This document shows positions 2,640 to 4,230 of a DNA stretch of 64,000 nucleotides, piece after piece. The notes under the pieces were generated by a model. It was not told the origin of the DNA, did no database searches, and saw only the letters and a list, made by a program, of their open reading frames with translations. Made by a program: the position numbers and the translations under genes. How positions within the stretch are numbered: position 1 is the first letter of the stretch; each line of letters starts with the position of its first letter. Source of the stretch: Escherichia phage vB_EcoM_LNA6; the sequence record OM630585.1; one strand, 5' to 3'.

Positions 2640-2700
2640 TGTATTACATTGAGTATAAAAATAAGCTATAACACCTGACTTGTCAACAGATTTTATAGCT
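2640..2700. repeat. inverted repeat / hairpin (ataagctataa...ttatagcttat)
   Basis: Near-perfect palindrome arms at 2661-2671 and 2691-2701. Confidence 0.4.
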
Positions 2701-2830
2701 TATTTGGCAGATTTTTTATAAGGCTACTGCCATCCTTCCATACCTTACCTTACCACACCTAACCATACCTAACCAAACTACACCATACAATACCTTGTTA
2801 AAAGACCCTCTTAAAGACCTTTTAAAAAGG
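2700..2830. repeat. CA-rich degenerate tandem repeat tract, copy 1
   Basis: ccataccttaccttaccacacctaaccatacctaaccaaac...; almost G-free on plus strand; related tract at 3960-4230. Confidence 0.5.
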
Positions 2831-2848
2831 AGCCTCCGAAGAGGCTGC
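2815..2848 (-). terminator. intrinsic terminator
   Basis: Minus-strand ggcagcctcTTCGgaggctcc hairpin followed by T-run. Confidence 0.5.
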
Positions 2849-2857
2849 CTAGTCAAC

Positions 2858-3298
2858 TTAGAAAGGTTTTCTACGTTGCTTGTTAATGTTAGCTTTCATA
2901 GCAGCTAAATGGTTTTGCTGTTCAATTAGTCGTGAACGTTCTTGATGGCTAAGTGCCATAGTGTTCACATTCTCAATTGCTTGAGTGGCTTGCTTTAAAG
3001 CTCGACCAATCTTACCAGACATTTTACGTTTTGCAATAGTTGCTTGATGCTTAGGTTCAACCACACGATAACCAACACCCATTGAAGCAACCAGATAAAT
3101 CTTCTCTTCTTTAAGAAGCTTCTCAATAAACTTCTCAAGTCGGTTTAGACGTGTAAGCGCATAAGCCTTCATTTCATCTTCGTACTTAACAATGTCACCT
3201 TGATAAGTTGGCTTCACAATACCTAAGAAGGTGTCCATCTCAGAATGTGATACAGTGTCACCGTAACTAAACTTTGCTGCTAATGCTTTCGTATTCAT
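2858..3298 (-). CDS. hypothetical protein
   Basis: 146 aa ORF; terminator-like hairpin downstream on minus strand. Confidence 0.4.
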   Translation of the reverse strand: MNTKALAAKFSYGDTVSHSEMDTFLGIVKPTYQGDIVKYEDEMKAYALTRLNRLEKFIEKLLKEEKIYLVASMGVGYRVVEPKHQATIAKRKMSGKIGRALKQATQAIENVNTMALSHQERSRLIEQQNHLAAMKANINKQRRKPF

Positions 3299-3300
3299 AA

Positions 3301-3903
3301 TTAAACGTTACCTTCTGAAATAACTTCTACAGAAAAACGACCAAAGCGTGGACGCCAATCACCTACACCACAAAGGTTACCAGCATTTTCAAGAACCATC
3401 AGAAGTTCCTCTTTGGTGATTTGCTCTTCATCGAACATCAAACCGAACTCTACAGACCAGTCACGGAAGATTGGACGGTAGTTCATAACTCGTGCTGTAC
3501 CAATCTTAACAGACTTAGCATAGATGAAGTCTGGATTCTTAGCAAGTTCTTGTGGGTTTGCTGGGCAGTTCTTGATAGTCATTGGGAAGACTACATCTGT
3601 CAGCATAATGGCTCGGTCAATTACCTTACCAAGTTTATTGAGTTTTGCACCAGACTTGATACAAGCCTCAATCATCTCACCGTTCATAACAAAACCTAGT
3701 TGGTCATCGTAGTAGCAAGAAGTTACCAGTTGACTTTCTGCTAAGAGCGCATAGTCTTCGTCAGTCTTTTTACGTTTACTGGACAGAGACTTGTGATATT
3801 TTGTCAGAGGGTTTAATGGGTCTGACAGAGTATCTGCATGGCTCAGGAAAGGACGAGTACCAGTGATTTTGATATTTAACAGTTTCATAGCATTTAGCTC
3901 CAC
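3301..3903 (-). CDS. hypothetical protein
   Basis: 200 aa ORF; start overlaps neighbour stop. Confidence 0.4.
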
Positions 3904-3959
3904 ACTTTAGTTGATTGTTAAGTTGTTTGTAAAGAACCCTCAACAGAAGACTCTTTAGA

Positions 3960-4230
3960 AACTTGGTAGATTTTTAACGTGGCTACTACCATCCACCCAT
4001 ACCTCACATCACCATACCATACCTGACCGGACCTAACCAAACTCCACAGCACCATACATCACATCACACAACCTTATTAAAAGCCCCTGTTTAAAGACCT
4101 TTTAAAAAGGTAAGTCTCATTTTAATGTAGCTGAGACTAACTACCCATACCAAACAGCACCGCACTATGCCTTACCCCACCTCACCGAGCCTCGCCCCAC
4201 ATCACTTAAAAACCCTTTTCAAAGACTCTT
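3960..4230. repeat. CA-rich degenerate tandem repeat tract, copy 2
   Basis: ccacccatacctcacatcaccataccatacctgacc... plus shared tail ttaaaagaccc/ttaaagaccttttaaaaagg. Confidence 0.5.

Follow-up and report, generated by a model that had tools for sequence, protein, structure and literature searches.

What do the CA-rich, almost G-free repeat tracts in two intergenic gaps of Escherichia phage vB_EcoM_LNA6 represent? The tracts lie within a 64,000-nt stretch of the phage's DNA (sequence record OM630585.1) that was analysed as a whole and is referred to here as the window, and a preliminary description made from the letters alone had placed them at 2700-2830 and 3960-4230 and taken them for a protein-binding array or an unusual promoter or untranslated-region (UTR) element. 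Our computational analysis leads to an answer that we hold with high confidence, namely that positions 2706-4296, read on the minus strand, form a VIPR (Viral Interference Programmable Repeat) locus of type II, belonging to the SUSP1 clade, in a Felixounavirus-like myophage. Judged by sequence, the locus belongs to a system that is already known, the SUSP1 VIPR clade, whose source is a recent preprint. New in this study are the particular guides and their predicted targets, the confirmation of the targeting code on a wider set of phages, tail classes that are specific to module slots, and 5' hairpins.

VIPR was reported in a preprint of June 2026 as a phage-encoded, CRISPR-like (clustered regularly interspaced short palindromic repeats) system of RNA-guided DNA binding, and its main text gives the following outline (bioRxiv 10.64898/2026.04.26.720920). 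A VIPR locus holds vipr and one accessory vap gene, with long intergenic flanks, and the vap1 product is predicted to bind DNA. Vipr, of ~20 kDa, is an early-branching RAMP (repeat-associated mysterious protein) that has an RRM-like (RNA recognition motif) core and the glycine-rich loop and thumb hallmarks. The guides, termed vrRNAs, are ~100 nt long and consist of 9-16 YNNGG repeats, in which GGY is conserved and NN is hypervariable, followed by an invariant tail that is pseudoknotted in the SUSP1 clade; those of SUSP1 were detected as ~100-nt RNAs by small RNA sequencing and co-purify with Vipr in a pull-down. It is the NN dinucleotides that pair with double-stranded DNA, each unit passing over one target base, and the SUSP1 complex represses transcription from either strand, needs no protospacer adjacent motif (PAM), and gives protection that is enhanced by vap1. 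In the SUSP1 clade the sequences naturally targeted belong to a satellite phage found in E. coli genomes, the skipped base coinciding with the wobble position of the codon, and the clade's own guides are not self-targeting; satellite-borne vrRNAs are mentioned as well, and VIPR is proposed to be ancestral to the RAMP effectors of CRISPR. That main text names neither Felix O1 nor Felixounavirus (bioRxiv 10.64898/2026.04.26.720920).

Results

Three pentamer arrays on the minus strand

Composition, a shared 20-mer, periodicity and uniqueness all place the tracts far beyond chance at the positions where they had been reported. The near-absence of G on the plus strand was borne out, with a single G in the 68 nt of 2733-2800, four in the 91 nt of 3988-4078 and six in the 69 nt of 4138-4206. 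The difference of C minus G in 60-nt windows rises to +26 in the tracts, compared with a window-wide mean of -1.1 (sd 5.5), which places the most C>G-skewed windows of this size in the 64 kb within them. The reiterated units of the preliminary description are real repeats, but their actual form is a strict 5-nt period: identity at lags of 5, 10 and 15 nt is 0.49-0.63 versus 0.33 +/- 0.03 in shuffles, none of 2000 shuffles reached it, and the units read NNGGT on the minus strand, with the variants NNTGT, NNAGT and NNGGC. A pentamer-array detector returned three arrays in the window, all on the minus strand, at 2742-2796 (11 units), 4001-4075 (15 units) and 4149-4208 (12 units, 10 of them variable), with no other array in the window and none in 20 shuffled windows. 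What had been counted as two tracts is therefore three modules, since 3960-4230 holds two in tandem. Their reported common tail is indeed an exact identity, the 20-mer TTAAAGACCTTTTAAAAAGG occurring precisely twice (2811-2830 and 4091-4110; 0.02 expected by chance), but it is a 5' hairpin flank, and the true 3' tails are those of Table 1.

The consensus of 1165 units from related loci leaves positions 1 and 2 free and has G at position 3 in 77% of units and C in none; the detector itself demanded G at position 4 and either T or C at position 5. Units without GG (e.g., GATGT or TAAGT) make up 23%, and the arrays of those loci are on the gene strand without exception. These properties bear on whether the tracts act at the level of DNA or transcription, for example as an antisense (plus-strand) rut (rho utilization) site, as an origin-like R-loop or two-tetrad G-quadruplex, or as a GT-rich recombination hot spot. 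Such an element would find a rut-like feature in the extreme plus-strand C>G skew over 70-110 nt, GG-N3 runs that could form two-tetrad quadruplexes, a location among replication and nucleotide-metabolism genes, and, in the hypervariability and 10-nt slippage variants described below, the marks of a recombination-prone tract. We consider it extremely unlikely, since it leaves unexplained the strict 5-nt phase, the G at position 4, the free positions 1 and 2, the covarying tail and the gapped matches to satellite DNA. The share of units lacking GG means that quadruplex potential is not the conserved property, and Chi (GCTGGTGG) cannot be written in NNGGY phase.

Vipr and Vap

The 195-aa protein encoded at 3301-3888 is 97% identical to that at 28477-29061 of phiSUSP1, and its AlphaFold2 model, built on a 56-sequence alignment, has a predicted local distance difference test (pLDDT) score of 95. 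With a mass of ~22 kDa and an RRM-like core it is a small, stand-alone, Cas7-like RAMP, and residues G170, G174, R179, P180, F182, G183, R184 and F185 of its C-terminal glycine-rich motif are invariant or nearly so in the 56 homologues. Distant Vipr homologues (32-43% identity) were seen in Pseudomonas, Gordonia, Mycobacterium and Listonella phages. Only three proteins were found in the homologue search for the adjacent vap product, whose all-helical model, from a three-sequence alignment, has a moderate pLDDT of 73. Neither Vipr nor Vap matched a Pfam family, and PHROGs returned only families of unknown function.

As in a minimal VIPR locus, vipr and vap are adjacent and have long intergenic flanks (~370 nt between vipr and the promoter at 4296-4269, and 244 nt on the other side), with no CRISPR array or cas genes. 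A repeat search of the window recovered the pentamer arrays and module flanks only, with no class 1 CRISPR-Cas array of direct repeats (~24-40 nt) and spacers and no cas1/cas2-like neighbours, and no neighbouring open reading frame (ORF) had a Cas-related Pfam or PHROG match.

Conserved modules with hypervariable guides

Loci for comparison comprised 24 from IMG/VR, retrieved via the 195-aa protein, and three from GenBank; flanks and arrays were compared in 18 close IMG/VR relatives whose upstream region was extracted, and guides and modules were counted in 22 loci, consisting of the window and 21 relatives. Each module is ordered, on the minus strand, as 5' hairpin, pentamer array and 36-nt tail. 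Among the 18 close relatives the promoter, hairpins, tails and inter-module spacers are nearly invariant, and the arrays differ almost completely in positions 1 and 2 and in unit number. The 22 loci carry three to five modules per phage, with 63 distinct guides among 91 modules; neighbouring modules assort independently among near-identical phages, and some alleles differ by a 10-nt slippage. The 90,743-bp L017, which is evidently SUSP1, has one array upstream and three downstream, in agreement with the SUSP1 layout given in the main text of the preprint.

The class of the tail follows the slot of the module, class T3 always being the last module before the next gene (21 loci). Alignment of the 22 distinct tails, which is ungapped, supports an H-type pseudoknot of two helices and nine pairs: 98.5% of cells are paired, in comparison with 30-44% in slid controls, and compensatory changes affect eight of the nine pairs. 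Helix 1 alternates among GTGG/CCAC, AAGG/CCTT and GTAG/CTAC, and helix 2 among GGTAG/CTACC, GGCAG/CTGCC, AGTCTCA/TGAGACT, AATCG/CGATT and GTCG/CGAC.

The same plan extends to L027, a metagenomic phage whose Vipr homologue is only 37% identical and in which the two genes are likewise surrounded by GGY/NN arrays, four in number and 14-19 units long. The L027 arrays (2,880-2,960, 3,546-3,780 and 4,247-4,320) end in a T-run immediately before ribosome-binding sites, and their tail is unlike the pseudoknot tail of the Felix-like phages. Conservation of architecture over such deep divergence, together with hypervariable content, is the hallmark of an information-carrying, trans-acting element. A functionless degenerate microsatellite, or a slippage leftover in intergenic DNA, would account for arrays whose sequence is not conserved between phages of 95-99% identity and whose unit number varies, and GenBank annotators flagged nothing beyond a 'repeat_region'. 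That reading is barely conceivable and, on our evidence, effectively refuted by the architecture kept where Vipr has diverged so far, by arrays that are always on the gene strand, by flanking hairpins and tails that are invariant or covarying, and by significant target matches. Conservation in relatives, the lack of which had been put forward as grounds for dismissing the tracts, is thus divided: the architecture is conserved and the array sequence is not. A refuting test of that kind would misfire here, as the comparison of relatives indicates an array sequence that is deliberately non-conserved within a conserved architecture.

Predicted targets in an E. coli satellite

A BLAST search with SUSP1 tape-measure and baseplate DNA located a related gene pair in 480 of 5426 complete E. 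coli genomes. The eight loci that were retrieved are ~11-kb integrative elements inserted near wrbA, tonB or yecD. They carry genes for a small recombinase and a large serine recombinase, a gene for a methyltransferase or an HNH protein, small ORFs, and tape-measure and baseplate genes that are related to their counterparts in these phages. The guides were scanned over these eight satellites with zero to three skipped bases, the best scores at skips of 0, 2 and 3 serving as controls. All three guides of the window scored highest at a skip of one: guide A matched 22 of 24 NN positions (L032 6608-6643 and L036 6200-6235; controls 16-17), guide B2 26 of 32 (L035 13807-13854 and L037 13743-13790; controls 19) and guide B1 22 of 26, including 19 of 20 in its variable core (L031 13270-13308; controls 16-17). 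When the order of units was permuted, the observed score was reached in none of 1000 permutations for A, one of 1000 for B2 and none of 1000 for B1. Among related guides with at least 10 units, 24 of 51 reached an NN match of at least 80% in the eight satellites at a skip of one and none of the 51 did so at a skip of 0, 2 or 3, so that the published rule of one skipped nucleotide was independently reproduced on a different set of phages.

The targets fall in meaningful places. Those of B1 and B2 belong to two allelic families of the satellite's gene for a large serine recombinase and lie on its coding strand. Their distances from the start codons are 1077 and 759 nt, which by arithmetic puts them in frame and the skipped base at the wobble position of the codon. 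A satellite ORF is preceded at ~50 nt by a TTGACA-N17-TAGTAT promoter, and the guide A target covers the -10 hexamer and the start region of this promoter; a predicted NNx target for vrRNA A is, for example, AAAATGCTAGTATTGTATATATAAGTTAACAGAATA. The exact target sequences occur in 157, 39 and 63 of the 5426 E. coli genomes.

Within the window no self-target was found, the best skip-1 scores of 17/24, 20/32 and 17/26 being background (~24 kb of the genome is outside the window and was unscanned). Exact NNx pattern scans of IMG/VR with guides B2 and A gave no matches, exact matching being too strict and the satellites perhaps absent there. A BLAST search of 19.7-23.4 kb of the window against the E. 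coli genomes also had no match; that region is not the tail module, and the structural genes are outside the window. A BLAST search with a synthetic 'perfect' B2 target that was built on the wrbA-type recombinase returned no better allele, and the better B2 target lay in a different recombinase family.

When the locus itself was compared by BLAST with the 5426 E. coli genomes, a 77-nt match to the B2 tail appeared in unannotated DNA of 134 chromosomes. By sequence it is an orphan vrRNA gene that has its own promoter and a covarying tail. Orphan vrRNA genes were seen at 14,930-15,085 of L028 (E. coli O111:H- 11128) and also in L030 and L036, with an 11-unit array and the tail helix GTCG/CGAC; they adjoin a small recombinase, and no vipr gene is annotated nearby.

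Layout of the locus

The features of the locus are listed in Table 1 in minus-strand order.

Table 1. Features of the putative VIPR locus, 5' to 3' on the minus strand (window coordinates).
Feature	Coordinates	Strand	Details
Strong sigma-70-type promoter TTGACA-N16-TATACT	4269..4296	-	Consensus at 11/12; invariant in 18 related loci; annotated promoter in phage AYO145A; reads into the two upstream vrRNA genes (B1, B2) and vipr
5' hairpin of B1	4196..4242	-	Inverted repeat, 14-nt arms, 93% complementary; dominant stem in RNA fold; invariant in relatives; 3' arm includes two invariant pseudo-units TAAGT GATGT
vrRNA B1 guide	4149..4198	-	10 variable pentamers: GGGGC GAGGC TCGGT GAGGT GGGGT AAGGC ATAGT GCGGT GCTGT TTGGT
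B1 NN code	4149..4198	-	GG GA TC GA GG AA AT GC GC TT; hypervariable in relatives
B1 3' tail, class T1	4113..4148	-	ATGGGTAGTTAGTCTCAGCTACATTAAAATGAGACT; H-type pseudoknot GTAG/CTAC + AGTCTCA/TGAGACT
5' hairpin of B2	4071..4111	-	Predicted fold; holds the 20-mer shared exactly with module A
vrRNA B2 array	4001..4075	-	15 pentamers NNGGT/NNTGT; NN: AA TG GA GA AT GC GG TT TA CC CA AT AT GA GA
B2 3' tail, class T2	3965..4000	-	ATGGGTGGATGGTAGTAGCCACGTTAAAAATCTACC; pseudoknot GTGG/CCAC + GGTAG/CTACC
vipr, 195-aa RAMP (Cas7-like) protein	3301..3888	-	
vap (vap1 type), 146 aa, all-helical	2858..3298	-	99% identity to its phiSUSP1 counterpart, the gene that follows vipr directly
Terminator-like hairpin and T-run after vap	2826..2846 (hairpin 2846-2831)	-	T-run overlaps start of module A 5' hairpin
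5' hairpin of vrRNA A	2793..2830	-	Predicted fold; 20-mer common to B2
vrRNA A array	2742..2796	-	11 pentamers NNGGT; NN: AA AT AT GT TT TA AT TA GT AA AA, plus AT from first tail unit
A 3' tail, class T3	2706..2741	-	ATGGAAGGATGGCAGTAGCCTTATAAAAAATCTGCC; pseudoknot AAGG/CCTT + GGCAG/CTGCC
Promoter of next gene	2686-2658	-	Downstream of module A

The placement of the modules bears on a further alternative, in which the GGU pentamers are a cis-acting leader element. TRAP (trp RNA-binding attenuation protein) of Bacillus subtilis binds 11 (G/U)AG triplets with 2-3-nt spacers in trp leaders, one triplet per subunit. A similarly periodic site for a ring-shaped RNA-binding protein that controls downstream translation or attenuation would suit the 5-nt period, the conserved triplet and the free 2-nt spacer, as well as the position of B1 and B2 within the leader between the 4296-4269 promoter and the vipr start and the arrays of L027, which stop just before ribosome-binding sites. 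We judge it very unlikely. Module A, situated between a terminator-like hairpin and the promoter of the next gene, is no part of a leader, and pure spacers would drift neutrally, whereas the NN strings match satellite DNA far above permutations and in the 1-nt-skip register only. In addition, the adjacent protein is a RAMP rather than a TRAP-like fold, and the SUSP1 vrRNAs are discrete ~100-nt RNAs that co-purify with Vipr (bioRxiv 10.64898/2026.04.26.720920).

The inconsistent placement of the modules relative to promoters, and the match of the variable dinucleotides to satellite DNA under the published VIPR code, also speak against the promoter or UTR element that had been proposed at the outset. 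The proposed protein-binding array holds in spirit, since an oligomerising RAMP encoded between the repeats is predicted to bind them in their RNA form, but not as an array at the DNA level. A primase-site array (T4-type pppACNNN primers) and a CRISPR PAM decoy were rejected because neither accounts at once for a phase with free NN and fixed GGY, for the pseudoknot tail and for the gapped targets, and the TRAP-like site, two-tetrad G-quadruplex, R-loop origin, antisense rut site and Chi-like hot spot were dropped with phase, tail and gapped targets likewise unexplained together. The three groups of rivals, even when taken jointly, are improbable, and none of them explains the phase, the tail and the gapped target matches in combination.

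Directly after the tail of vrRNA A is a 19-bp hairpin (arms 2659-2677 and 2687-2705) followed by a T-run on the minus strand; its loop holds the -35 TTGACA of the next gene's promoter, so that terminator and promoter are superimposed. The motifs GGTCTTTAA and GGGTTCTTTACAA are present on the minus strand in module 5' hairpins (2,797-2,830 and 4,076-4,111) and in the vipr leader (3,905-3,945), and they resemble the boxA antitermination consensus, GCTCTTTAACAA.

Genomic context

The 1.7-kb region around the tracts shares 99.8% identity with Escherichia phage Barry and 99.7% with phage Tribble. It matched 230 phage records, nearly all of them FelixO1-like (Ounavirinae) phages of Escherichia, Salmonella and Shigella; at least 80% of the region is covered in 116 of the 230, and a Vipr of at least 90% identity is encoded in 117 records. 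From this distribution the VIPR locus seems to be an accessory module within the Ounavirinae. In deposited records the locus is annotated with no more than 'hypothetical protein' and two consensus promoters, a few records adding a 'repeat_region' that is left unexplained. An Rfam 15 scan of the window returned tRNAs only, no curated family reaching its gathering score at the tracts, and nothing relevant was found in the literature on Felixounavirus repeats and hypervariable regions.

All genes of positions 1-10,172 are on the minus strand, and the locus is flanked by DNA ligase (4454-5554) and a block ending in dihydrofolate reductase (DHFR; 31-576), its neighbours (ligase, DHFR and thymidylate synthase) being genes of replication and nucleotide metabolism. 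The stretch from DNA ligase to the VIPR promoter (4,304-4,450) is polymorphic relative to the homologous position in L004-L021: a 48-aa hydrophobic ORF is present here and in some relatives and absent in others, and L008 and L015 have unrelated sequence.

Elsewhere in the window, 26 tRNA genes are clustered on the plus strand at 58,323-63,555, as is typical for FelixO1-like phages. A region of ~1.7 kb at 47,860-49,540, between plus- and minus-strand gene blocks, has no ORF of at least 100 aa and carries 27 of the window's 78 YTGTTARV motifs (densest at 48,336-49,456), 24 of them on the plus strand and often spaced by 10-12 nt, and includes tandem ttgttagaaggc 12-mers at about 49,320-49,360. 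This stretch lacks the 5-nt GGY period and is therefore not VIPR; it may be an iteron-like array or a binding array for a regulator or terminase.

Discussion

In this study, we identified the repeat tracts of vB_EcoM_LNA6 as parts of a probable VIPR locus whose likely function, as suggested by its predicted targets, is the silencing of a parasitic E. coli satellite during infection. The locus would comprise vipr, vap and three vrRNA genes, two of them preceding vipr and the third following vap, each vrRNA consisting of 10-16 pentamers with a constant GGY and a free NN, capped by the 36-nt pseudoknotted tail. In this phage, transcription from the 4296-4269 promoter, and read-through past the vap terminator in the case of module A, would yield precursors from which array-plus-tail RNAs of ~96-111 nt could be released. 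If the mechanism described for SUSP1 in the preprint applies, Vipr subunits would assemble on the repeats, hold the GGY positions and present the NN dinucleotides to double-stranded DNA, where they would pair in the gapped register NNxNNx..., with one target base skipped per unit and transcription of the bound gene blocked (bioRxiv 10.64898/2026.04.26.720920). The complexes would then sit on the satellite promoter and on integrase/excision recombinase genes, and might block activation or spread of the satellite.

Several points weigh against this interpretation. Transcript ends, processing and Vipr loading for this phage are extrapolated from SUSP1, and the publication that is the source of the system is a preprint. 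Module A is behind a terminator-like hairpin, so that either read-through or a promoter that escaped recognition would be needed to transcribe it. With only about five tail classes, the covariation rests on few independent events, and the tail structure was derived from the same sequences that were used to count it. For Vap, a putative DNA-binding protein, Foldseek against the PDB had no match at E < 0.6. The best B2 match comprises 81% of NN positions (87% without the first, hairpin-paired unit), which is just above the 80% cut-off of the preprint, and as targets were scanned in eight satellite loci, better or different ones may exist.

How the guides are renewed invites speculation. It is conceivable, if rather unlikely, that the cassette architecture reflects a renewal mechanism beyond what the preprint describes. 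Recombinational exchange of guides is suggested by the cassette-like flanks, the independent assortment of modules and the satellite-borne orphan vrRNAs, and one possibility is that whole vrRNA cassettes, including the satellite orphans, are swapped during co-infection by homologous recombination via the conserved flanks. Another possibility is that new NN strings are templated from satellite DNA. In addition, the 5' hairpins with their boxA-like GGTCTTTAA might be processing or antitermination signals.

VIPR is a newly reported form of RNA-guided DNA recognition with a non-contiguous code, and our results add no new kind of system to it. They demonstrate that the locus can be flagged from raw sequence alone, by its composition and periodicity, and it is carried by at least 117 deposited phage genomes in which it is annotated merely as 'hypothetical protein' or 'repeat_region'. 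The concrete targets predicted for this phage are a promoter of the satellite and large serine recombinase genes of two families; they occur in 39-157 of the 5426 genomes and make an experiment of phage against satellite directly designable.

Comparison with known systems

The closest counterpart is the VIPR of SUSP1. Vipr is 97% and vap 99% identical in the two, and the genes are ordered alike and situated between DNA ligase and the DHFR block. Both have vrRNAs in which YNNGG repeats with a hypervariable NN are followed by a pseudoknotted, invariant 3' tail, and the guides of both match E. coli satellites of one kind at a skip of one nucleotide. The two differ in that the host phage here is Felixounavirus-like, whereas SUSP1 is a Suspvirus, that two modules are upstream and one downstream rather than one and three, and that the three guides are different alleles. 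The SUSP1 clade numbers 13 loci in the preprint, compared with the 117 records with a Vipr of at least 90% identity in the phage collection searched here, and the conserved 5' hairpins of the modules are not mentioned in the preprint's main text.

Class 1 CRISPR-Cas, in which Cas7, Csm3 or Cmr4 assembles on a crRNA, similarly caps a variable guide part with a conserved, structured handle, and its protein also interrupts base pairing periodically, at every 6th nucleotide in CRISPR (bioRxiv 10.64898/2026.04.26.720920). Of CRISPR-Cas arrays and proteins, only the RAMP fold is common to both: the locus has no repeat-spacer array and no nearby cas1/cas2 or other cas genes, its guide is non-contiguous, with two of every five guide nucleotides reading two of every three target nucleotides, and it relies on a single small protein that is encoded by a lytic phage and has no known acquisition machinery.

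TRAP sites resemble the arrays in having periodic RNA triplets, free 2-nt spacers and a similar copy number, suited to an oligomeric protein. The arrays differ from TRAP sites in their triplet, which is GGY rather than (G/U)AG, in spacers that encode information, as their target matches show, in having a RAMP as partner protein, and in a trans-acting RNA.

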